This document shows, piece after piece, positions 1,667 to 12,506 of a DNA stretch of 64,000 nt. This DNA is from Nostoc sp. DedSLP01. GTDB lineage: Bacteria > Cyanobacteriota > Cyanobacteriia > Cyanobacteriales > Nostocaceae. The position numbers and the translations under genes were made by a program. The stretch lies in the NCBI GenBank assembly GCA_034530875.2, contig JAVRCJ020000010.1, forward strand, positions 1 to 64,000, given 5' to 3'. Every line of letters starts with the position of its first letter. Positions within the stretch are counted from its first letter, which is position 1. Below the pieces are notes generated by a model. It had not been told where the DNA came from. It saw only the letters and a program-made list of their open reading frames with translations, and searched no databases.

Positions 1667-2248
1667 TTATTCTTTAATCTCAAATTCAACTTTATCGTAA
1701 ATATCTAATAAGGAGATTTCAAATTGAATAGAGGATAGTGTTAAAACACTATTTTCATCTTCGTATTCTGAAAAAATCCATTTTCTAGCTTCAGTTTTAT
1801 AATACTGCTCTACATGATGTGTGTACTGGTCTATTAAGACATATTCTTGAAAGCTGGGTATGCTACGATAAGCTGCAAATTTTTCATCTACATCATAACT
1901 TCTGGTAGATTTAGATAGCACTTCAGCAATCATCAAAGGATTGGTAATTGTATCTGTACGTCCTTCAGCAAATTCTAATGAACCTGCAACAACCATAACA
2001 TCTGGATATGTATGAATTCGCTTTTTCGGAATCCATAAACGTTGTTCAGCTACGAATACTCGATAAGGTTGTCGCTTCAAAGCAAAATTGAGGGCTGCGT
2101 AAAAATTACCAGCTATTTGATTGTGATTTGGCGTTCCACCTGTCATGGGTATAATTTGGCCATCTATATATTCACTACGATACTCTGAATTGACCTCTAA
2201 TTCTAGATATTCTGCTGGAGAATATTGGCGTTGTTCTTGTAATTGCAT
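1667..2248 (-). CDS. Uma2 family (PD-(D/E)XK) endonuclease-like protein
   Basis: EYIDGQIIPMTGGTPNHN, YPDVMVV, AEVLSKST; probable start MQLQEQ at 2248. Confidence 0.9.
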   Translation of the reverse strand: MQLQEQRQYSPAEYLELEVNSEYRSEYIDGQIIPMTGGTPNHNQIAGNFYAALNFALKRQPYRVFVAEQRLWIPKKRIHTYPDVMVVAGSLEFAEGRTDTITNPLMIAEVLSKSTRSYDVDEKFAAYRSIPSFQEYVLIDQYTHHVEQYYKTEARKWIFSEYEDENSVLTLSSIQFEISLLDIYDKVEFEIKE

Positions 2249-2379
2249 AAAATGAAACAATTTTGGATTTTGAATTAGTGCAAAAATTAAAAGTATTAGC
2301 AAGAGCTAGAAATATTTTGACTTATTTGAATTCATCATTCCTAACTCCTAACTTATAACTCCTAACTTATAATTAACTT

Positions 2380-3816
2380 TTACGCTGGTTTCCAAGTACC
2401 GTGGAAAGTGTGAGGAATGACGCTGGGTAATCCTAGTTTACAAACTGGTTCTGCATCTAAGCGATCGCTATCAAATATCCAAACTTCACTTTGATCGGAA
2501 TTACCATCATAAACTACAACTAAAATCCAACCTTGTTTGGGATTTTGATTATCTTGGGCGTAGATGGGTTCTGAGGTATAAATATTTTCTCCTAAGTCTA
2601 CTTCAGTAAGGGTTTCAGTTTTGTAATCAAAACGAGCGATCGCACTAAACCATTCTTTACCTGAATTCATTCTTTTTGGCAGCAATGCTACATAAGTATA
2701 ACGCCAAGGTTGTGCAACTTGCGATTTTGGCACTACAGGAAACTCACAAACGCGGTTGATAACTTCGTGGGTTGCTGTTAGTTTGGCAGTTTGAGGATTG
2801 AGATGCACTTGCCATAATGTTCCATGAGAATCTGTGTGCGTTTCACCAGTTGCAAATTCTCTGAGATATTCATTACTTTGTTGAAAATCTGAATATCGCA
2901 CCACATCCAAAATCACCGAACCGTCTTGATTTTCACAAGCATTGCCAAAATGCCATTGAAACCAAGGATCGGTTTCGCCACGACTCACTAAAGATAAGTT
3001 TTCCCTGTCAAAAATTAATACCTGAGTTCCTAACTTCGGTTCCCATAATAAAGAGTGACTAAAAGTAGTTAAACCAAGCATAAATTGCAGCATTTTCATC
3101 CGCATCGGTGGCATGAAAAACACCAAGTATCTTTGAGTTAAAACAAAATCATGTATTATTGAATAGCGATCTAATTTGAAAGCTGATTTTTGAATAATTT
3201 TGCCAGAGGTATCGCTTTTATAGAGATTCAGTTGTATAGAACTTCCTAAACTGATGCCAAAATTAAAAATTTCGCCTGTGTTTGGATCGCGTTTGTAATG
3301 AGCAGAATAGGGTAATCCATTATCCAAACCACCCAAATCATCTAATCCCTTTGTTTCTAGAGTTTGCAAATCAAGGGCATAAGGTTGAGTTGCTTCCCAC
3401 AAAGCCAACAGTTTATCTGGTAAAGCCAAGACTGAAGTATTAGCTGCATTCTTAATTTGCTGATTCCACCGCTTCCAAATCGGCCCCGGTGCGTGCATAC
3501 CATAAACAGCATAAAGGAATTTATCTGCTTGACTTTCAGCTTGATATTCTGCTGTTTGCACGTAGCGATAAACTCCGGTCACTCCTGCATCTGTGAAGTG
3601 GACGCTGAGAATTGCGCCATCTCCATCAAACCAGTGTCCCACGCGTACACCACCGCGTTCTAGCCGCGCGGGGCCATTGCGGTAAAGCGTACCACGCAAG
3701 CTATCTGGGACTTTACCGGAGAGAATTGGCAATTGGGTTGGGGGAAATTCTGTTGCTGGTTTAGCGATCGCACCTGCCCAAGCTCTTTTGTTTGACTTTT
3801 GAGTAATAGTTTGCAT
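2380..3816 (-). CDS. Carotenoid cleavage dioxygenase (RPE65 family)
   Basis: LYRNGP, HWFDGDG, SAHYK, IHDF, QWHFGN, PHTFHG: four His ligands. Confidence 0.93.
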   Translation of the reverse strand: MQTITQKSNKRAWAGAIAKPATEFPPTQLPILSGKVPDSLRGTLYRNGPARLERGGVRVGHWFDGDGAILSVHFTDAGVTGVYRYVQTAEYQAESQADKFLYAVYGMHAPGPIWKRWNQQIKNAANTSVLALPDKLLALWEATQPYALDLQTLETKGLDDLGGLDNGLPYSAHYKRDPNTGEIFNFGISLGSSIQLNLYKSDTSGKIIQKSAFKLDRYSIIHDFVLTQRYLVFFMPPMRMKMLQFMLGLTTFSHSLLWEPKLGTQVLIFDRENLSLVSRGETDPWFQWHFGNACENQDGSVILDVVRYSDFQQSNEYLREFATGETHTDSHGTLWQVHLNPQTAKLTATHEVINRVCEFPVVPKSQVAQPWRYTYVALLPKRMNSGKEWFSAIARFDYKTETLTEVDLGENIYTSEPIYAQDNQNPKQGWILVVVYDGNSDQSEVWIFDSDRLDAEPVCKLGLPSVIPHTFHGTWKPA

Positions 3817-3964
3817 ATTAAATTAGTCTCTAATAAATTATTAATCTACACAACTGTATTTTACATTTTCATCATGAATTAGTTGTATATTAGTGCGTCA
3901 GTCCAATGCCGTAACTCTTCCTACTGGCTGACTCCTGAATTCACCAATTTTAACTCCTGCTATA

Positions 3965-3980
3965 TATGAGCTAGCTCATA
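3965..3980. promoter_or_regulatory. Perfect 16-bp palindrome, candidate operator
   Basis: TATGAGCTAGCTCATA in the divergent intergenic region between the dioxygenase and the globin. Confidence 0.35.
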
Positions 3981-4042
3981 GTAACTGCTAGAAATAAACA
4001 GTAAATTGAAATCAATCAAGATTCTAAGTGGTTGAAAAAACT

Positions 4043-4501
4043 ATGATTAGCCAAAAAACAATAGATATCGTTAAAGCTACAGCGCCTATTTTAAAAAAAA
4101 GCGGTCAGCAAATCACAAATCGGATGTATGAAATTATGTTTCAAAATCATCCAGAAATCAAAAGACAATTTGATATGTCTGCTCAAGCAGATGGCTCTCA
4201 GCCTGCAAGATTAGCGACAGCAGTTTATAGTTATGCTAACCAAATTGATAACTTACCTGCTTTAAAATCAATGGTAGAAAAAATTGCCCATCGCCACGTG
4301 CAGACTCATGTTACACCAGAACAATATCCGATTGTTGGAGAAAGTTTATTGCACGCAATGAAAGATGTTTTAGGAGAAGCCGCTACAGAAGAAGTGATGG
4401 CAGCTTGGACTGAAGCTTATCAGGCATTAGCTGAGGTTTTTATTAATAGAGAACATGACATATATCTAGAAGATAAAAAACAACAATTTGTCTATTCCTA
4501 A
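4043..4501 (+). CDS. Single-domain globin (Vitreoscilla Hb / flavohaemoglobin globin-domain type)
   Basis: MISQKTIDIVKATAP, KIAHRHV, PEQYPIVGESLL, AWTEAY; no reductase domain. Confidence 0.92.
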   Translation: MISQKTIDIVKATAPILKKSGQQITNRMYEIMFQNHPEIKRQFDMSAQADGSQPARLATAVYSYANQIDNLPALKSMVEKIAHRHVQTHVTPEQYPIVGESLLHAMKDVLGEAATEEVMAAWTEAYQALAEVFINREHDIYLEDKKQQFVYS

Positions 4502-4566
4502 CAAAAACTTAAGCGTTGCAGAATACTAATAACTTCAAAAGCTCAAACTCTTGGTAGCTTAGGCAC
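4498..4566 (-). pseudogene. hicA: Truncated hicA toxin remnant
   Basis: GTG overlapping the hicB 3' end reads MPKLPRV*AFEVISILQRLSFC*: HicA-like N-terminus with an internal TGA. Confidence 0.7.
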
Positions 4567-4798
4567 TGGTTACTTCAAATGTAGTTAGCAAACAACGATA
4601 TGCTGTCTCAGAAAGTGGGAATTCTTCTAAATAAAGTTCTGTTGCTTCCCGTAAATTAGCAATAGCTTCTTCTATTCTCTCTCCTTGGCTAGCGGTTCCC
4701 ACCTCTGGACATTCAGCTACATAAACATCTTCTTCCCAATACAGAATTGCTGTAAAGGTACGAGTTTTTGTATCCTTAGCCTGTTGTAATGAACTCAT
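4559..4798 (-). CDS. hicB: HicB family antitoxin
   Basis: YVAECPEVGTASQGERIEEAIANLREATELYLE. Confidence 0.9.
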   Translation of the reverse strand: MSSLQQAKDTKTRTFTAILYWEEDVYVAECPEVGTASQGERIEEAIANLREATELYLEEFPLSETAYRCLLTTFEVTSA

Positions 4799-4839: not shown

Positions 4840-7338
4840 TTAATCATTTGGAGGCAACAACATCCGCGCCTCAATAGCTTCCCAGGTTTGGGGCGACACC
4901 CGCACTGCTGCTTGTTTGCACTGGATAATGAGATGATTCGCGTAGAGATAATTTTCTAATGCTTTTATTTGTCCCTCAGATAAATCGATCATTTCTGGGG
5001 TGAGATGGAAAGCTTTGAGTAAGGTTTGTTGCACGTCTTCAGCAAATACCCGACGCACTTTCCTTGATTGTTTATCATCAGGAATTGTAGCTTTGAGTGC
5101 CTCTAGTTGGGCAATCAGCATAGTAAAGTTGACGTTATTGAAGATTTCTGATTTTTTTAGTTGACTAGTATTTTTGATAGTGTTGGTGATGGCAATGGCA
5201 TCGGCGTTGGCGATAGCGTTGGCGAAGTCGATGGCCTTGGCTATGGCGTTGGCGTTAACGATGACATTGGCGCTAGCATTGGCTATGGCGTTAGCGTAGG
5301 TTTTGGTGCTGGCGATGACATAGGCGTTGGTGTCGGCGTTGGTGTAGGCGCTAGCGATGGCTTTGGCGATGACGATGGCGTTGGTGTAGGCTCTGGTGAT
5401 TGCAGATGCACGTTTACGTACAGGTTTCCAATTACCACATGATCCAACTGTTACCTTTTCTGCCCAGTTTAATAAAGCCTGTAACTTAGGGGTACTAATG
5501 TATTTTTGCGCTTCCTTTTCCATCAACAACAGCAAATCATCTGCACCACCGCGCATTAATCCAGCTACTAGCAAAAAGACCTCTTTCCAGCGTTCATCTA
5601 CAAAATGTTCAGTAACTAACTTATTAACTTGGTGATGGTCATTTATATATTGTGCTGTTAAATATTCCTGTAGTGTCAAATGAGAAAATGAGTAGATATT
5701 CCTTGCTCGTTCTACTAAAATTCCCTGTTGAATAGCTATAGCATCTAAAACTGCCTCAGCGTCTAAATTTTTAGGTGCATTATCGTTATTATGCAGAGAG
5801 TCTTTAATTTGACTTACAAGTTCTTGGTGAGATAAAAATAACCGTTTTGATTTAAAGCTGTGATATGCAATCTCAGCCAGCATAATTTTCTCTACATCGA
5901 TGCCAAGCTGACGATAAATTGGTTTTGTTTGAATGCGTTTTTCAGCAGCCCATTTTTCTAATAAAATATCTAAAGCTTTACTGTAAAGCGTAGCTCGGTT
6001 TTTAGGCAAATCTTGAGATCCGTCATACACTAAACAAAGAAAAGTTAGCAACACAGGAGTTCTAGCTAATTCTTTAGTTGATTCTTGGTTTTTGATTAAC
6101 TCCCAGCACTTGTTTGCGGTTCCTACTCTTTTATCAACCTCTGAAGAAAACCAGTTTTGAATAAACTGCTGAATTTGAGCATCATCAAAATCGGCGATCG
6201 CAATTTCCATCAAATTTCTAAACTGCGATCGATAAGCAGCAGTCCGGCAAGAAATAATAAATCTATTTTTTTTATATTTATCGACGAAGAGTTGAATTTC
6301 GCTAATTACAAAATCTGTATTTTCCGTTGGTACTTCATCTAAACTATCCAACAAAATTATTAACTTGCCTTGTTCTAATGCTTTAGTGGTAAATTCTTCA
6401 GAGAATGGTAGCTGAGATGATCTGAATGTTTGTCTAATTACTTCTTCAATATTGATTTTGCTTTCAGTCAATAGTTTTAATTCAATAAAAACCGGAATAC
6501 ATTCATGTTGCAATTCACCAGATTTACCCTTGAGTGCTTCTAGTCCTACCTTCCGCAAAAATGTAGATTTACCAGCACCTGGTGCGCCGAGTACCATCAA
6601 ATATTGCTCCTCATTGGCAACTTTAATTCCCTCTTGTTTCTCAACATCTTTACGGTGGAATCTGCTGTTTATAACTTCACTTGAAATTTTTTGTAAGTCT
6701 TCATTTGATTCAAATTGCCAGCACCAAATATCACTTTCCTGCAAACATTGCACAGCCGTGTAAATTGAATCTAAATCTACAGGCTGCTGCATTCCCAATA
6801 TTTGCAACTTGTTATGTTGCCTGTGGTAGTTAATAATATACTGCTCAGATGCTTGATAAATTAATTTTTTTGTTTCCTCATCTATAGGGCGGTCAAGTGT
6901 GTTTATATAAATATCAACAAAATTTTTCACTGCTGTATCTGGTGCAACTTCCGGCAGTGCAATCAACCGATCTAAAGTCACATGGTTAACTCCAGACAGT
7001 GATAATGAGCGCAAAATATCATCAGCCGTACCTTCGACAACCACAACGCGGCTGAGTTCACCTCCAATAGGTTTTAAAGAAAGTTGCTGGAGTTCTTGAA
7101 TAGTATCACCCAGCATTTCGGCAAGTTGGCTTTTGCGCTGTTCAATTAATGCCTGTCGATAAGCCTCAGATGATGTAAACTGTTGAGGTTTCAGCGATGA
7201 ATTGTTTGCGTTTAATCTAATTTGATTTTCGTCTCCCAAACTCATAATTGCTCGAATTACCTCATTTCCCTTCGCACTCATCAAAACTTCTTGAAGCAGA
7301 GGGTCAATTTTGGCAATTTGGCTTTCGTTAAGTTTCAT
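4840..7338 (-). CDS. NACHT (STAND) NTPase with N-terminal propeptide-like domain, (A-x)n repeat and NCH2-like C-terminus
   Basis: Walker A GAPGAGKST, Walker B LLDSLDEV, ISCR, TPVLL, FSHLTLQEY; C-terminal ENYLYANHLIIQCKQAAVRVS. Confidence 0.9.
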   Translation of the reverse strand: MKLNESQIAKIDPLLQEVLMSAKGNEVIRAIMSLGDENQIRLNANNSSLKPQQFTSSEAYRQALIEQRKSQLAEMLGDTIQELQQLSLKPIGGELSRVVVVEGTADDILRSLSLSGVNHVTLDRLIALPEVAPDTAVKNFVDIYINTLDRPIDEETKKLIYQASEQYIINYHRQHNKLQILGMQQPVDLDSIYTAVQCLQESDIWCWQFESNEDLQKISSEVINSRFHRKDVEKQEGIKVANEEQYLMVLGAPGAGKSTFLRKVGLEALKGKSGELQHECIPVFIELKLLTESKINIEEVIRQTFRSSQLPFSEEFTTKALEQGKLIILLDSLDEVPTENTDFVISEIQLFVDKYKKNRFIISCRTAAYRSQFRNLMEIAIADFDDAQIQQFIQNWFSSEVDKRVGTANKCWELIKNQESTKELARTPVLLTFLCLVYDGSQDLPKNRATLYSKALDILLEKWAAEKRIQTKPIYRQLGIDVEKIMLAEIAYHSFKSKRLFLSHQELVSQIKDSLHNNDNAPKNLDAEAVLDAIAIQQGILVERARNIYSFSHLTLQEYLTAQYINDHHQVNKLVTEHFVDERWKEVFLLVAGLMRGGADDLLLLMEKEAQKYISTPKLQALLNWAEKVTVGSCGNWKPVRKRASAITRAYTNAIVIAKAIASAYTNADTNAYVIASTKTYANAIANASANVIVNANAIAKAIDFANAIANADAIAITNTIKNTSQLKKSEIFNNVNFTMLIAQLEALKATIPDDKQSRKVRRVFAEDVQQTLLKAFHLTPEMIDLSEGQIKALENYLYANHLIIQCKQAAVRVSPQTWEAIEARMLLPPND
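5183..5403 (-). repeat. Degenerate 6-nt coding repeat (GCC/ACC/GTC + NNC) encoding an (A/T/V-x)n tract
   Basis: AITRAYTNAIVIAKAIASAYTNAD...ANAIANADAIAITN; GC-rich relative to the rest of the gene. Confidence 0.85.
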
Positions 7339-8546
7339 AGGGCTGCGATTACCTGAATTAAACCTTTACCTTGGCGTTCCTTGTCGTGTCCCAAATCTTT
7401 ACAACTTGTCAGGAGTCCGTCAACTAAATCCAATACCGAAATTTGCTTATTATACTTCTCTAAGATTAACGCTGCTACACCAGAAACGATGGGAGTTGCC
7501 ATTGAAGTTCCCTCCCAAGCTTCATAGCCACCACCTTGAACTGATGAATAAACGCCTTGTCCAGGCGCAACCAAATAAGGAACATCATAAGAATGATTAT
7601 TAACTAATATTCTGCCACTGCCGCTAAAACTGGCAATTTTACTATCAAAGTTTGTTGCACCTACTGAAACTGAACTCCGACAGTTTGCTGGTGTTCTTGT
7701 ATTGTTACGCCCATCGTTACCAACAGCACAAACAGGCAGGATACCAACTGCCAATAAAGTATCAATAACATCGCTCATTTCATGAGCATACGTAGGAAGA
7801 CCTGCTGAAATGTTAACAATATTCACGTCTGGTCGAAGTGCTAGCCACTCCAGCCACATTACAAAATCTGATAATTTGCCAGTACCTTTTGGGATAAGTA
7901 CGCCATCAATCAGTTTAGTTTCTGGTGCAACCCCAACTTGCTGACCACAAATCAGTCCAGCTACGTGAGTACCATGACCATCCGTATCCTGGGAAACTGT
8001 TAACTGGATTTGCTTACTTCTATCATTAAAACTATAAGATTCAGTTACCTTACCTTGCAATTCTCGGTGTGTTGAATCGATACCTGTGTCAAGGACAGCA
8101 ATGGTAATACTTTTACCAGTGCCCGCAAACCCATTTTGACGTGCTATGTTGAGAGCGATCGCATCCAAATGCCACAATTCATCTTCGGTAAGTTCATCTT
8201 TGGTATCTGTATTTCTTTGTTGTGGCTGAATTAACTCAATCGGCCGATCCCGCAAAATTAAAGCATTAGGCAACTCTTCACGAATTCTGACCGCCTCTTC
8301 ATCCGGCATTTCTACAACACTTGCACCAGTAATACCTGAGTAATCTGGATACTTTGTTACTTCGCTTGTGTCGTTTTGTGCATCTTCTAACCACTGTTCA
8401 ATTTCTTGGTATACTTGGTTTTCCTGCCAAAAATTTACAACTTCTGCAACTTGCGCCTTACGACTTTCGGGTGTAAATTTTTTAGATTCAAGTTTTAGCG
8501 ATCGCGCTGCTGATGTTGCTTTAGGTCGAATAATATAAACGCTCAT
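7335..8546 (-). CDS. S8 (subtilisin-like) serine protease, no signal peptide
   Basis: VLDTG, GHGTHVAG, AVGNDG, GTSMATP; GAGGGG before ATG 8546; ATGA overlap with the NACHT gene. Confidence 0.93.
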   Translation of the reverse strand: MSVYIIRPKATSAARSLKLESKKFTPESRKAQVAEVVNFWQENQVYQEIEQWLEDAQNDTSEVTKYPDYSGITGASVVEMPDEEAVRIREELPNALILRDRPIELIQPQQRNTDTKDELTEDELWHLDAIALNIARQNGFAGTGKSITIAVLDTGIDSTHRELQGKVTESYSFNDRSKQIQLTVSQDTDGHGTHVAGLICGQQVGVAPETKLIDGVLIPKGTGKLSDFVMWLEWLALRPDVNIVNISAGLPTYAHEMSDVIDTLLAVGILPVCAVGNDGRNNTRTPANCRSSVSVGATNFDSKIASFSGSGRILVNNHSYDVPYLVAPGQGVYSSVQGGGYEAWEGTSMATPIVSGVAALILEKYNKQISVLDLVDGLLTSCKDLGHDKERQGKGLIQVIAAL

Positions 8547-8724: not shown

Positions 8725-9480
8725 ATGACAACTACACCAACCTTCAATTCTTGGATTAACTGTCCCCAACCAAATCCTCAAGCAAACTTGCGTTTATTCT
8801 GCTTTCCTTACGCTGGTGGTAGCTCTATAATTTTTCGTACATGGGCTAATAGCCTACCTCGCAATGTCGAAGTCTGTGCTGTGGAATATCCTGGACGGGG
8901 AAAACAGATGAAGTTAGCACCTTACACGCGGTTAGAACCTCTTGTAAATGCGATCGCTCAATCTCTACTACCATATTTAGACAAACCATTCGCCTTCTTT
9001 GGGCACAGTATGGGTGCATTAGTTAGCTTCGAGTTAACTCGTCTACTGCGCTTAGAGTATAATATTGAGCCGTTTCACCTTTTCATATCTGCTCGTCGCG
9101 CCCCACAACTCCCGCCCATAAAACCACCTATCCACGTCTTACCAGACGCAGAGTTACTCGAAGAACTACGCACTCTCAACGGTACACCCAAAGCAGTACT
9201 AGAAAATCCAGAACTAATGCAAATCTTCCTCCCAGTTTTACGGGCAGATTTTGCAGTTCTGGAAACTTATATTTACACTCCACAACAGCCCCTAGACTCT
9301 GCCATTACTATATTTGGTGGTTGGCAAGACAAAGAAGTTAGCCATGAGGCTCTGCAAGCATGGCGAGAACAAGCAAGGTCTATCTCTTTACAAATGTTTG
9401 AGGGCGACCACTTTTTTATACACTCTCATCAAGATTCATTACTTAAACTTATATCTCAAGAATTGGGAGTTAGGAGTTAG
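8725..9480 (+). CDS. Type II thioesterase
   Basis: LFCFPYAGG, FFGHSMG, LRADF, GDHFF. Confidence 0.92.
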   Translation: MTTTPTFNSWINCPQPNPQANLRLFCFPYAGGSSIIFRTWANSLPRNVEVCAVEYPGRGKQMKLAPYTRLEPLVNAIAQSLLPYLDKPFAFFGHSMGALVSFELTRLLRLEYNIEPFHLFISARRAPQLPPIKPPIHVLPDAELLEELRTLNGTPKAVLENPELMQIFLPVLRADFAVLETYIYTPQQPLDSAITIFGGWQDKEVSHEALQAWREQARSISLQMFEGDHFFIHSHQDSLLKLISQELGVRS

Positions 9481-9528: not shown

Positions 9529-9933
9529 CTATCTTCTTTGCGTGGCGATCGCTAATTTTGCCCCCGGCACTTCACGCACCCGATCCATCACAGCCACTAC
9601 CTTGCCGTGACCAACTTTTTCATCAGCATTAATAATCACTAACATTTCTGAGTTAGAACCAATTAAACTCCGCACTTGCTGCGTTAAATCATCAACTGCA
9701 ACTTGTTTGCGGTTTAAGCTTACTACTCCTTGTTCATCTACCGTAATGGTAATTTTGGAGGGAACTTGCTGTTGTTTTGCCGTCGCTGCCTTTGGTAAAT
9801 TTACTGGCAAACCTTCCGATCGCGTTAAAAACAAAGTTGACATGATAAAAAATGTCAAAATTGCAAAAATCACGTCAATCATCGGCACAATATTAATCTG
9901 TGCTGGAATATCTGGTTCATCTTGTAGCCGCAT
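9529..9933 (-). CDS. exbD: Biopolymer transport protein ExbD
   Basis: INIVPMIDVIFAILTFF, VNLPKA, INADEKV. Confidence 0.93.
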   Translation of the reverse strand: MRLQDEPDIPAQINIVPMIDVIFAILTFFIMSTLFLTRSEGLPVNLPKAATAKQQQVPSKITITVDEQGVVSLNRKQVAVDDLTQQVRSLIGSNSEMLVIINADEKVGHGKVVAVMDRVREVPGAKLAIATQRR

Positions 9934-10573
9934 AGGTCTTCTCTCCTCCTCTTTCATAACGACGACGGTAGAGCAATTCTAACTGTCCGCCATATTCCTG
10001 AATTAAGGCGATTTGCCGCTGGTACAATCCCCGGAAGGTGTTGGCAAACAACAGTATGAAGATAGCAACAATCAAGCCTGACGCTGTAGACACCAACGCT
10101 TCACTAATCCCAGCGGTAACACTTGCCGTTTTGCTACCTCCGACATCGCCCAGATTTAGAGAGGCAAAGGAAGCGATCAATCCTAATACTGTACCCAGAA
10201 GCCCCAACAGTGGAGCCAGACTAATAATTGTCTCAAAAATATTTTGGAAGCGTTTGAGTACGGGGATTTCTGCCTGCGCTTCGCTTTCCAACGCCAAACG
10301 AAATTCTTCTGGATTCGGCTCTTCTAATTCTAAAGCTGCAAGAAAAATCCGAGCAAGTGGCAAATCTGCATTCTGCTGGAGTTTATCCATTGCACCGACA
10401 ACATTATCGAGGCGATAGAGATGCAAAACATCCCGCACCACGCGGCTTTGACGCTTGTTAATCTTTACCCAAAACCTGATACGCTCAATAATCAGCGCCA
10501 CTCCCAATACTGAAAACGCCAGCAGCGGCCACATGACCACGCCGCCTGCTGCAAAAAGATTCTGAATTCCCAT
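9917..10573 (-). CDS. exbB: MotA/TolQ/ExbB proton channel protein
   Basis: APLLGLLGTVLGLI, GISEALVSTASGL. Confidence 0.93.
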   Translation of the reverse strand: MGIQNLFAAGGVVMWPLLAFSVLGVALIIERIRFWVKINKRQSRVVRDVLHLYRLDNVVGAMDKLQQNADLPLARIFLAALELEEPNPEEFRLALESEAQAEIPVLKRFQNIFETIISLAPLLGLLGTVLGLIASFASLNLGDVGGSKTASVTAGISEALVSTASGLIVAIFILLFANTFRGLYQRQIALIQEYGGQLELLYRRRYERGGEKTYAATR

Positions 10574-10618
10574 GTTCTCAAAACGTCATCAACAATACAC
10601 AGTAAGACTAGCAGAATC

Positions 10619-10690
10619 TTGAGAAAAGCTGAAACTTTTTCTCAATAATTTTTAAAATATAATGATAATTTTTTTTAATGCAATCTCATA
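10619..10690. promoter_or_regulatory. Fur-box-like AT-rich inverted repeats between exbB and tonB
   Basis: TTGAGAAAAG-CTGAAA-CTTTTTCTCAA and AATGATAAT half-site; iron-uptake context. Confidence 0.45.
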
Positions 10691-11081
10691 ATTTTTATAT
10701 AGTTACCTGAACAGAACTAATTATACACGACTAAAGAAGAAGGGTAAGGCAAAGTTATGACGCTTTATGCATTTTATTCAAATCTACATTTCAGTACGTA
10801 CAATAAATTTTGCTCAGTAGGCAATCTTTTAACTTATCCAAAGTCATATTTTTTTCGCAAACATACCTAAATTAGGCAGATAAGTTGTTCGCTTTATATA
10901 AATTAATTTAATGAAAATAAAAATTCTTTTTATTTAGAAACTGTGATATTGAGAGTTTTTCCAGAGTTTCGACCAATGTGGCAGTTACATCAAAGTAGGG
11001 CAAATAAATTTAATTTTTTACTTGAAATTTGTAACCTTGCATTCTAAGATGACTAAATTAGTGAGAATAGGTAGCAATAGC

Positions 11082-12506
11082 ATGAGCTTTTCCGGCATTA
11101 ATGTCGAGCAACGTTCTAAAGAAGTTGAGGCTCTCAAGTCTTTTCTGGCTTACAGTATATTAGGCTCACTGGTACTCCATATCGGCGTATTGTCCTCAGG
11201 TATAAGTAATTATTTAACAAGAATGCCTGAAGAGAACGATCTGCAAATAGAGGTGGCGATCGTTGATTCTCCGACTAGGGAACCAGAAAAACCACTTGAA
11301 GAAATTCCACAAGAACCCAAAAAAGAACCAGAGATTGTACAAAAACAACCTATAGAAACTCCACCAGCCGAAAAAGTTCAGCAGCAATTTGAACAGATTA
11401 CAGCAGTCGCGCAGAAACCACAACCGATAAATACGCGACCAATTACACCACAAGTTCCTGTAAAACCTGCACCCATTGCACGAACGGCTGCACCAACAGC
11501 TGCATCTGAAGATTCTAAAACAAGCTCAGCTGGTGGTGGCGGCGGTGGCGGCTCTGGTGTTGGTTTAGGTTCAGGTAGCGGTATCGCTGTCGGTACAAGC
11601 AGTGGAACCGGTCCTGGCGGAGGAACTGGCACTGGTACTGGCGGCGGCATTGGCAGTGGAACTGGAACTGGTACTGGTAGTGGAATTGGTAGCGGTACTG
11701 GTAGCGGAATTGGTAGCGGTACTGGCAGTGGAATTGGTAGTGGCACTGGCAATGGAATTGGCAATGAACCAGTAAACCGTCCGGTAGCAACAGCGCCAAC
11801 AGCGCCAACACCTCCAAAAATTAACACTTCAGGTAATAGTAACGGTCGTGCGGCTTGCCGCAAATGTGATTTTAAGTATCCAGAGTCATTTAAACGGCGA
11901 GGAATTGAAGGCCGTACAGGTTTGGCTTTTGATACTGACGAACAAGGTAACGTTATTAATGTGCGGGTAGCCAGTTCCAGCGGCAACCGCGAATTGGATG
12001 AAGAACACTTGAGACAAGCGCGTGAGTGGAAATTCAACCCAGCACAAGGTGGCAGACGAGGGGTAAGAGTCAACTCTGCGGCTTTTAAAGAAAATTCCCG
12101 GCAATACCGCCAATACCAACAACAAAGAAAAAAAGAAACAGAACAAAGAACCCAGCAAGCTACAGCCTCCAACTCCAATACCACAGAGGGAACTTCAAGA
12201 CGTAGGCGGCGAGAATTTACATCGTCACCTAATCAAGCTACAACCACAAGAACAGCAGAATCTCGATTGAATCGGCCGCTGCGTCGTCAGAGAGTGGAAA
12301 CTACTGCCACAAGCTCTCAAGGAACCGCCAGAGAGTCTCTACGCCGCGTTCGTAGCGAACGAGCAACTACTAATTCATCACAACAACCACAAGCAACTAT
12401 AAATCGACGGCGGCGAAGAACAAACGCTAACCAAAACAAGTTGCGGGAGTCTTTGCGTCGTTTACGCCAACCTCAAGCGCAACCCGCTACACCAAGTCAG
12501 CAGTAG
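11082..12506 (+). CDS. tonB: TonB family protein with Gly-rich linker and Arg-rich tail
   Basis: SLVLH TM anchor, Pro/Glu-rich region, YPESFKRRGIEG...SSGNRELD...WKFNPA TonB_C. Confidence 0.88.
   Translation: MSFSGINVEQRSKEVEALKSFLAYSILGSLVLHIGVLSSGISNYLTRMPEENDLQIEVAIVDSPTREPEKPLEEIPQEPKKEPEIVQKQPIETPPAEKVQQQFEQITAVAQKPQPINTRPITPQVPVKPAPIARTAAPTAASEDSKTSSAGGGGGGGSGVGLGSGSGIAVGTSSGTGPGGGTGTGTGGGIGSGTGTGTGSGIGSGTGSGIGSGTGSGIGSGTGNGIGNEPVNRPVATAPTAPTPPKINTSGNSNGRAACRKCDFKYPESFKRRGIEGRTGLAFDTDEQGNVINVRVASSSGNRELDEEHLRQAREWKFNPAQGGRRGVRVNSAAFKENSRQYRQYQQQRKKETEQRTQQATASNSNTTEGTSRRRRREFTSSPNQATTTRTAESRLNRPLRRQRVETTATSSQGTARESLRRVRSERATTNSSQQPQATINRRRRRTNANQNKLRESLRRLRQPQAQPATPSQQ

Follow-up and report, generated by a model that had tools for sequence, protein, structure and literature searches.

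We propose, at a probability of about 45%, that an NLR-like NACHT protein of Nostoc sp. DedSLP01 carries the inhibitor of a separately encoded S8 protease and likely gates this protease. The two genes lie in a window of 64,000 nt (contig JAVRCJ020000010.1, positions 1 to 64,000). The comparisons support the S8 and NACHT genes as a conserved unit, and they support the placement of S8 and its partner domain in the variable N-terminal slot of a bacterial NLR. The preliminary description of this DNA reported an S8 protease with intact D/H/N/S catalytic motifs and no signal peptide, an ATGA overlap with a NACHT gene with intact Walker A/B motifs, and a decayed toxin-antitoxin locus beside the pair, and each of these features is borne out. 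It also took the protease as a separate effector controlled by the NACHT protein. The two-gene unit is indeed conserved, but the NACHT protein also starts with a module of its own, a predicted propeptide-like domain at residues 1-130.

The S8 subtilase gene (7335..8546, minus strand) encodes 403 aa, starts with the ATG at 8546, and has a Shine-Dalgarno-like GAGGGG site 5' of this codon. The protein has no signal peptide; its N-terminus lacks a hydrophobic stretch, the highest 18-residue Kyte-Doolittle mean being 0.19, and hydrophobicity above 1.8 (12-residue window) is seen in just 2 of 120 S8 homologues. The catalytic domain (7362..8117, minus strand) matches Pfam S8 (PF00082) at residues 144-395 (E 2.7e-42), and D153, H191, N277, and S348 are kept here and in all 13 aligned intact alleles, with a dN/dS of 0.28 for residues 120-403. 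The AlphaFold model has a pLDDT of 93.9, and its top Foldseek match is unprocessed pro-subtilisin E. Judging from this model and from motif counts, residues 1 to about 108 (8223..8546, minus strand) form the protease's own propeptide, which is modelled as beta/helical insert/beta-alpha-beta and ends in D100-R-P-I-E-L-I-Q-P108. The propeptide end of the family reads D-[QR]-P-I-E-L-I-[QR]-P, and all 80 S8s counted carry P108. The Atlas look-alikes of this propeptide, which we use as leads only, include I9 and the CspB prodomain at 0.88.

The NACHT gene (4840..7338, minus strand) encodes 832 aa and follows S8 with a stop/start overlap that reads ATGA on the minus strand (7335..7338), an overlap also present in the metagenome locus L049. 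Its product has a three-part layout consisting of a variable N-terminal module, a NACHT, and a C-terminal sensor region. The NACHT NTPase domain (residues 246-399; 6142..6603, minus strand) matches Pfam PF05729 (E 2.2e-13; 50.8 bits against a cut-off of 26.7). Walker A is GAPGAGKS (residues 251-258) and Walker B is LLDSLDE (D331, D334, and E335); the latter reads DGLDE in most alleles, and the Walker motifs are found in 17 of 17 alleles. A hypervariable Ala/Asn/Ile/Tyr repeat segment at residues 641-725 (5164..5418, minus strand; tandem repeats at 5176-5350) is a candidate sensor. This segment is variable in length and shows a dN/dS of 0.82, and otherwise different NACHT alleles have stretches of it in common. 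The C-terminus is an NCH2 helical domain here (residues 741-829; 4852..5118, minus strand; Pfam PF22727, E 2.3e-16) and consists of HEAT repeats in the fusion P0031.

Residues 1-130 of the NACHT protein (6949..7338, minus strand) are predicted to be a separate domain with the subtilisin-propeptide (I9/PopD-like) fold, a putative S8 inhibitor or docking module by its modelled fold and motif. The AlphaFold model of this domain has a pLDDT of 94.8 and contains the beta-alpha-beta-beta-alpha-beta core of the propeptide fold. A VIA comparison with 48,161 chains places the Tk-SP propeptide first (Z 10.4, rmsd 2.6, 86 aligned). The next nine places, ranks 2-10, also go to subtilase propeptides, including those of CspB, subtilisin, PCSK9, and EpiP, with POIA1 (PDB 1v5i) at rank 12 (Z 6.0). 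Foldseek puts the same propeptide families first, with no match reaching E 0.001. The Atlas similarity is 0.92 to PopD, 0.91 to I9, and 0.90 to the CspB prodomain; the domain has 135 of 256 features in common with PopD (family PF27478), where 170 is typical within one family. At the sequence level, none of 96 domain members matches Pfam I9, Pfam, PADLOC, and NCBIfam assign no named family to residues 1-130, a PDB sequence search with the domain profile gave nothing significant, and direct BLAST of the domain against S8 gave no match. The C-terminal extension of the domain resembles the end of the cognate S8 propeptide, and hhalign aligns the two weakly (E 5.6e-4, probability 30%). This tail reads D-R-L-I-A-L-P in the present fusion, and the commonest residues in stand-alone members are D-[RQ]-P-I-E-L-I-[RE]-P. 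Pro at D+6 occurs in 9 of 21 fusions versus 12 of 111 stand-alone members, and Pro at D+8 in 4 of 21 versus 61 of 111.

The pairing put forward in the preliminary description extends to other genomes of filamentous cyanobacteria. The fused NACHT gene lies downstream of S8 at 14 of 15 S8 loci, the fifteenth stopping at a contig edge. All 10 S8-bearing genomes among 401 cyanobacteria have the domain downstream, as do, directly downstream, all 13 full-length S8 genes in 127 genomes of the genus; these three sets overlap. No intact S8 of this family without the domain directly downstream was found in the 127 or the 401 genomes. A metagenome scan gave almost only generic S8s and was used as a control: the domain is found at none of 79 generic S8 loci (26-37% identity; many of the contigs are short), and the single in-family S8 locus of the set carries it. 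Because of this composition, the neighbourhoods of stand-alone members beyond cyanobacteria rest on two loci: L049, from a metagenome, where the contig stops within the partner, and L048, a distant cyanobacterial case. The distribution is patchy, with S8 and the fused NACHT in 13 of 127 genus genomes. No copy was found in a plasmid search, which returned one generic S8 at 29.5%, or in a search of viral contigs.

The domain family outlined here, which we describe as predicted bacterial propeptide-like S8 partners, comprises 244 clusters at 50% identity and has no match in the Pfam copy searched. Its members mostly stand alone at about 130 aa, 118 of the 150 best matches being no longer than 170 aa, indicating that protease and partner usually do not require an NLR. 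Separate fusions join the domain to TIR, to TIR plus EAD7-like, and to bDLD1-like domains, and its NACHT fusion occurs across very divergent NACHT cores and several cyanobacterial families. In the NACHT fusions it replaces the N-terminal module of the NACHT protein and is not added to an existing one. Unfused loci in the same chromosomal slot have a short hydrophobic N-terminal helix (13 of 14) or an HTH-like N-terminus (1 of 14), so that one locus has three alternative NACHT N-termini. Unfused alleles begin near the position equivalent to the end of the domain, and unfused relatives are about as common as fused ones (54 of the 118 best homologues). One truncated S8-like ORF that is apparently secreted (G465) also shows a weak domain match (E 8.6e-6) in its propeptide region, and this match was excluded from the fusion count.

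Four genomes have lost the S8 catalytic part and kept the domain, and the reverse was never seen; these genomes seem to form a single clade, with one or two loss events, which makes the one-sided pattern weak evidence. The S8 remnants contain stops and differ by 6-11%. The dN/dS of the domain is 0.50 after S8 loss versus 0.27, suggesting that selection on the propeptide-like domain relaxes once S8 is lost. The changes in the four genomes are R61Q (three of four), G93D (two of four), and D123N (one of four), and G93D also occurs in L193, an allele whose S8 is intact. In all four, the fused NACHT ORF has stayed open (836-846 aa), and its core shows a pN/pS of 0.26-0.63 with 59-113 differences per pair; stops are expected from about 5% of random changes in this ORF. 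An open and selected NACHT without S8 indicates either some protease-independent use or refreshment by recombination.

In the mechanism that we propose, the S8 and NACHT genes, both intact, are inherited together, and S8 would fold on, cleave, and shed its own propeptide as subtilases do during maturation. The fold and motif suggest that the domain would occupy the propeptide's site on mature S8, with the D-R-L-I-A-L-P tail in the substrate cleft. By analogy with other NLRs, the Ala/Asn segment and NCH2 may sense a cue, probably infection, that leads to nucleotide exchange and oligomerisation of the NACHT. This rearrangement could withdraw the tail from the cleft, because the tail runs directly into the NACHT linker, or could free S8, and the resulting cytoplasmic proteolysis would arrest or kill the cell. 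More tentatively, this NLR may be wired in reverse, bearing a copy of its effector protease's propeptide in place of the effector itself or a like-binds-like adaptor, and signalling by lifting inhibition, and the 130-aa mimic may be a new immune coupling module that NACHT-NCH2, NACHT-HEAT, TIR, and TIR-EAD7 sensors have taken up to control one cytoplasmic subtilase family. NLRs in the available literature act through a fused effector or an effector recruited by an adaptor; if the proposal is true, gating of a separate protease by a tethered propeptide mimic would be a further way of linking a sensor to its output, with a logic near that of guard-type toxin-antitoxin defence. Natural alleles without the protease or with another N-terminus, and the two-gene size, make the system easily tested.

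The continued purifying selection on an open NACHT ORF after S8 loss, the many stand-alone members of the domain family, and the abundance of close unfused NACHT relatives would also be expected if a self-contained S8 and inhibitor cassette, resembling a toxin-antitoxin pair, had simply been joined to a NACHT gene. Inhibition would then be constant and the NACHT would signal, uncoupled, through its own helical region. We regard this as rather unlikely, since the fusion is kept across deeply diverged NACHT cores in several cyanobacterial families, the domain replaces rather than extends the N-terminal module, its fusion to immune-type domains has happened repeatedly, and the tail differs between fused and stand-alone members at D+6 and D+8.

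Gating could also run in the opposite direction, the domain being docking bait and a zymogen cap, with S8 cutting after about residue 128-130 and freeing a NACHT with a new N-terminal helix as the real effector. The tail mimics the autoprocessing region of S8, unfused alleles begin close to the matching position, and activation by proteolysis is common among defence effectors according to the available part of a recent study (bioRxiv 10.1101/2025.11.14.688446). However, the helix to be exposed is far less hydrophobic (mean Kyte-Doolittle value 0.59, n=61) than the unfused N-terminus (1.52, n=51), the fusion P0029 is without most of the linker, and the NACHT is still selected without S8. Pro is also frequent at the predicted P1-equivalent position, a register that we take to be that of subtilisin propeptides, and we consider cleavage by S8 an improbable route. 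Very improbable, in our estimate, is developmental or stress control without immunity, in which the domain retains a leaderless protease until the NACHT receives a signal, and the protease then has an export or differentiation role. The Atlas similarity to PopD fits this, as do the lack of a defence island and the exbB/exbD/tonB-like genes that adjoin the Nostoc loci; PopC, in the available text, likewise lacks a signal peptide, is restrained by PopD, and exits via a TonB-dependent transporter (PMC6434023). The exbBD/tonB neighbourhood, however, is kept where S8 is absent and was not seen at the loci of other genera; a functional link to S8-NACHT was rejected. The patchiness and the rapid change of the sensor segment are more in keeping with a conflict system than with a core developmental one. 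The gated-protease reading remains the one that we favour.

Kinship with IetAS-type modules, suggested in the preliminary description, did not hold. IetAS/SgiAT, as far as the available text goes, is likewise a two-gene system that couples an S8 protease with a P-loop ATPase (PMC5006074), but that ATPase is of the AAA type, whereas the partner here belongs to the NACHT/STAND proteins and has a propeptide-like domain dedicated to the purpose. The S8 matches IetS in the catalytic core only (36.9 bits on a 749-position model) and scores 30.3 bits on the IteS model NF042956, whose cut-off is 900; no IetA match was found in the NACHT protein, and a PADLOC scan gave only a weak mad8. With 403 aa against about 750 aa, the sub-threshold NF042956 score, and no IetA-type partner, this identity was rejected. 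Because the domain is predicted to mimic the S8 propeptide, the closer parallel is a PopC/PopD-type protease/inhibitor pair plus an NLR. In the available accounts from Myxococcus xanthus, the protease likewise lacks a signal peptide and shares an operon with its restraining complex partner; PopD is lost through FtsH-dependent degradation under ppGpp, and secreted PopC generates C-signal (PMC6434023, PMC4320627). PopD is described there as a small free protein that is degraded on starvation, whereas the partner here is the N-terminus of an 832-aa NLR.

POIA1 (I9; PDB 1v5i) and Plasmodium SUB1-ProM also have a propeptide fold encoded apart from the protease, and SUB1-ProM, encoded next to subtilase genes, acts as an inhibitor of its cognate enzyme (PMC6993865). 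In the available descriptions both are free inhibitors, neither being fused to an NTPase switch as the domain here is. The bacterial NACHT/NLR-related proteins of Kibby et al. (bioRxiv 10.1101/2022.07.19.500537) are alike in having a NACHT with an NCH-type C-terminus and a variable N-terminal module, and in being frequent in cyanobacteria. Their peptidase effectors in the available text are fused caspase, trypsin, transglutaminase-like, and SMT4 domains; that text names no S8 and no propeptide-like domain, and in the present pair it is the predicted inhibitor that is fused, the protease having a gene of its own. We did not find the S8 and propeptide-mimic NACHT arrangement described in the literature, although the domain table of Kibby et al. 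might list it, and the seven supplements of PMC13581612 make no mention of S8 subtilase, Inhibitor_I9, PopD, NCH2, or propeptide. The available account of fungal S8/NACHT/WD40 NLRs beside gasdermins also ties S8 to NACHT in a cell-death pathway, but in that account the NLR itself contains the protease, HET-Q2 is without I9, and the target is the adjacent gasdermin (PMC8851545), none of which applies to the present pair. No gasdermin gene was found in the flanking ORFs of the window or in 66 neighbours of 12 other loci (E 1e-8), and a gasdermin-protease (HET-Q-like/bGSDM) identity was rejected.

A defence setting, for which the preliminary description suggested PADLOC, was not seen: 66 neighbouring ORFs of 12 loci gave only generic helicase, methyltransferase, ABC, Uma2-like, oxidoreductase, and subtilase matches and no defence island. 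A promoter/terminator scan was at chance level (13 versus 11.5). The decayed toxin-antitoxin locus consists of a hicB-like gene (4559..4798, minus strand), a profile match below cut-off that is often found 3' of this NACHT gene whether or not S8 is present, and a truncated remnant with a stop at codon 8 (4498..4566, minus strand), presumably hicA, judging by sequence pattern and position behind hicB. At L022 this ORF is intact, and an intact hicAB-like pair lies 3' of the NACHT gene.

In the window, the S8 subtilase gene (8546-7335, minus strand, 403 aa) and the NACHT gene (7338-4840, minus strand, 832 aa) are flanked, together with hicB (4798-4559, minus strand) and a minus-strand hicA remnant, by a globin gene (4028-4501) on one side and a stand-alone thioesterase gene (8725-9480) on the other. 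The preliminary description had reported an ATGA overlap of the two genes, intact catalytic residues (D153/H191/N277/S348), no signal peptide on S8 and both Walker motifs in the NACHT gene, and all of these are borne out; it overlooked a separate N-terminal domain of the NACHT protein (residues 1-130, here the partner domain), which has no match in Pfam, PADLOC or NCBIfam. S8 and the NACHT gene are each single-copy in this genome, and its other NACHT paralogues are below 35% identity and lack the partner domain. To judge by named relatives with S8 identities of 73-89%, the window derives from a Nostoc-like cyanobacterium. On the globin side, a Uma2 endonuclease-like gene, an RPE65-family carotenoid oxygenase and the single-domain globin (1667-4501) are ordinary genes kept at the slot across strains, and exbD, exbB and a TonB-like gene that contains a long Gly/Ser/Thr repeat (9529-12506, named by sequence patterns) adjoin the thioesterase.

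The proposal that S8 and NACHT form a conserved pair holds in neighbourhood surveys. In three overlapping sets, within which related genomes are not independent, the fusion of partner domain and NACHT lies directly downstream of S8 in 14 of 15 loci (the 15th stops at a contig edge), adjoins S8 in all 10 S8-bearing genomes among 401 cyanobacteria, and adjoins all 13 full-length S8 genes in the genus-level set of 127 genomes, 17 of which carry the fusion. Both genes are frameshifted in one of those 10 genomes (G194), and the 401-genome set holds two further domain matches, one with both genes decayed and the other a distant stand-alone copy that follows an S8 of 33% identity. The pair in Scytonema hofmannii PCC 7110 consists of the neighbouring locus tags WA1_43165 and WA1_43170. 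The partner domain is found at 0 of 79 generic S8 control loci, and the single in-family locus of the control set has it, again with the ATGA overlap. Since the genomic surroundings differ between genera, the unit moves as a cassette. At three loci (L021, L022 and L041) a gap of ~200-250 nt replaces the overlap.

The partner domain is predicted to have a propeptide fold. Its AlphaFold model (pLDDT 94.8, 96-sequence alignment) resembles the propeptides of Tk-SP (Z 10.4, rmsd 2.6, 86 aligned), CspB (Z 7.7), subtilisin (7.4) and PCSK9 (6.8), and the inhibitor POIA1 (6.0). Foldseek also places subtilase propeptide families on top, but with no significant E-value, and the ESM Atlas, which marks the family assignment as uncertain, gives PopD 0.92, I9 0.91 and CspB prodomain 0.90 behind three unnamed clusters. 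A full HMMER search yields 244 clusters at 50% identity, the best 150 of which comprise 118 proteins of at most 170 aa, 22 NACHT fusions and 10 other longer proteins. Other fusions join the domain to TIR (P0086), to TIR and an EAD7-like domain below cut-off (P0037), and to a region with a weak bDLD1-like match (P0099); an unknown region (P0054), a coiled-coil/transmembrane region (P0076) and a helix-hairpin-helix region (P0106) are also seen. On a domain tree that left out 17 of 151 rows by length, a single clade (support 0.86) holds 21 of the 23 NACHT fusions together with several short members, two lie elsewhere, the TIR/EAD fusions are separate, and fusion type changes 7 times, versus at least 17 in shuffles.

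The best structural matches of the S8 model (pLDDT 93.9) are unprocessed pro-subtilisins, and the predicted S8 N-terminus runs strand, helical insert, strand-helix-strand, in the same order as the partner domain. Across 80 homologues the S8 propeptide ends in D-[QR]-P-I-E-L-I-[QR]-P, and stand-alone partner-family members carry the same D-[QR]-P-I-E-L-I-x-P-type consensus; a profile alignment pairs the two tail regions (E 5.6e-4, probability 30%). Because the consensus is common to both and the alignment pairs these regions, the partner would most simply be a second, separately encoded copy of the S8 family's propeptide. The tail is altered in NACHT fusions, where Pro is shifted from D+8 (4/21 fusions versus 61/111 stand-alone members) towards D+6 (9/21 versus 12/111). 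If D+6 is the P1 position, as we presume by analogy with subtilisin propeptides, Pro there would hinder cleavage of the fused tail. Four S8 alleles are longer by 17-45 aa (L018:6001-7305, L193:3847-5109, L042:6243-7604 and L045:4312-5655), with the L018 and L193 insertions in the linker to the catalytic domain, just past the motif. The partner-domain profile also gives a weak match to the propeptide region of a truncated S8-like ORF (L196:4738-5556) that appears to carry a signal peptide.

Within the genus, 50 of the 127 genomes have a close NACHT core, and 12 of 14 unfused loci examined adjoin the same thioesterase. Thirteen of these 14 have a short hydrophobic start and one has an extension that we take to be HTH-like, which has no Pfam name. 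Among the best 118 NACHT homologues, the partner domain is present in 64 and absent in 54. The commonest allele at the slot (L171-L184, L003, L004) is NACHT-NCH2 with a hydrophobic Gly/Ala-rich N-terminus of ~35 aa, a type found in 51 of the 118; this may be a membrane-acting helix of what we would label the Bell/HeLo type. As fused, short-hydrophobic and HTH-like alleles occupy the same slot, three N-terminal modules alternate there, S8 plus the partner domain being one of them; this matches the effector swapping that Kibby et al. (bioRxiv 10.1101/2022.07.19.500537) report for bacterial NACHT proteins. In a FastTree of 41 thinned NACHT cores, fusions occupy deep branches and the short-helix type is nested among them (support 0.95), with unfused proteins sampled near the query only.

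S8 plus NACHT fusion is a real, conserved bacterial NLR variant, a bacterial NACHT protein by domain content, and apparently undescribed so far. PopC/PopD and SUB1/SUB1-ProM (PMC6993865 for the latter) likewise couple a subtilase to a propeptide-like partner. PADLOC and NCBIfam profile scans rule out identity with IetAS, and the PADLOC scan of neighbouring ORFs rules out a gasdermin system. No NACHT protein with a propeptide-like domain was found in the literature searched, though Kibby Table S1 and other supplements may list one; the arrangement is absent from the accessible portions of Kibby et al., PMC7159879, PMC8195603, PMC8851545, bioRxiv 10.1101/2021.06.07.447441, bioRxiv 10.1101/2025.11.14.688446, PMC13581612, PMC6434023, PMC4320627, PMC5006074 and PMC6993865.

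Beside the directly observed anatomy, co-inheritance, alternative modules and selection, the pair offers a specific, cheaply testable mechanism. The partner domain very probably binds and inhibits S8; the state of the NACHT protein would then gate the protease, and the gated pair would act in defence. For this whole chain, a propeptide-mimic NLR gating a separate protease in defence, we estimate a probability of about 0.45. In four related genomes an internal deletion has removed the catalytic Asp and His of S8; there the partner domain is relaxed (dN/dS 0.50) and family-conserved positions are altered, one of them also in L193, whose S8 is intact. Because the domain relaxes and conserved positions change once S8 is lost, this supports a domain function tied to S8. 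The reverse loss, an intact S8 without the domain, was not seen in the surveyed genomes. All NACHT ORFs of the same four genomes remain open (pN/pS 0.26-0.63) while the S8 remnants are 6-11% divergent, with stops, so NACHT output seems independent of the protease or NACHT is refreshed by recombination. This argues against simple protease gating and leaves some room for an uncoupled fusion, in which domain-S8 inhibition and NACHT signalling are independent, a reading we consider unlikely. One locus (L015) has lost NCH2 and kept the partner domain and S8. That S8 instead cleaves and thereby activates the NACHT protein is distinctly improbable; the fused tail would resist cleavage under the P1 assignment.

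Developmental control of the PopCD type seems very improbable. The exbBD/tonB genes beside the Nostoc slot recall PopC secretion as described in PMC6434023; these genes are also present where S8 is absent and were not seen beside S8 loci of other genera. No defence island was found among 66 neighbouring ORFs of 12 loci, which gave only generic PADLOC matches, and a hicAB-like pair often follows NACHT, with or without S8.

Pooled pairwise dN/dS over 12 intact alleles (divergent L193 excluded), whose pairs are not independent and show recombination, is 0.28 for the S8 catalytic domain, 0.34 for its propeptide, 0.27 for the partner domain, 0.30 for NACHT, 0.23 for the helical domains, 0.47 for the NCH2 region and 0.82 for an Ala/Asn repeat segment. 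This segment varies in length and is common to otherwise different alleles, the behaviour to be expected from a diversifying sensor. In the window it is an Ala/Asn/Ile/Tyr segment (5164-5418) composed of 12-42 nt repeats; long open frames run through it on the opposite strand and in shifted frames as well (as Gly-Val or Pro-Thr repeats), and frameshifts lie within it in L003 and L015.
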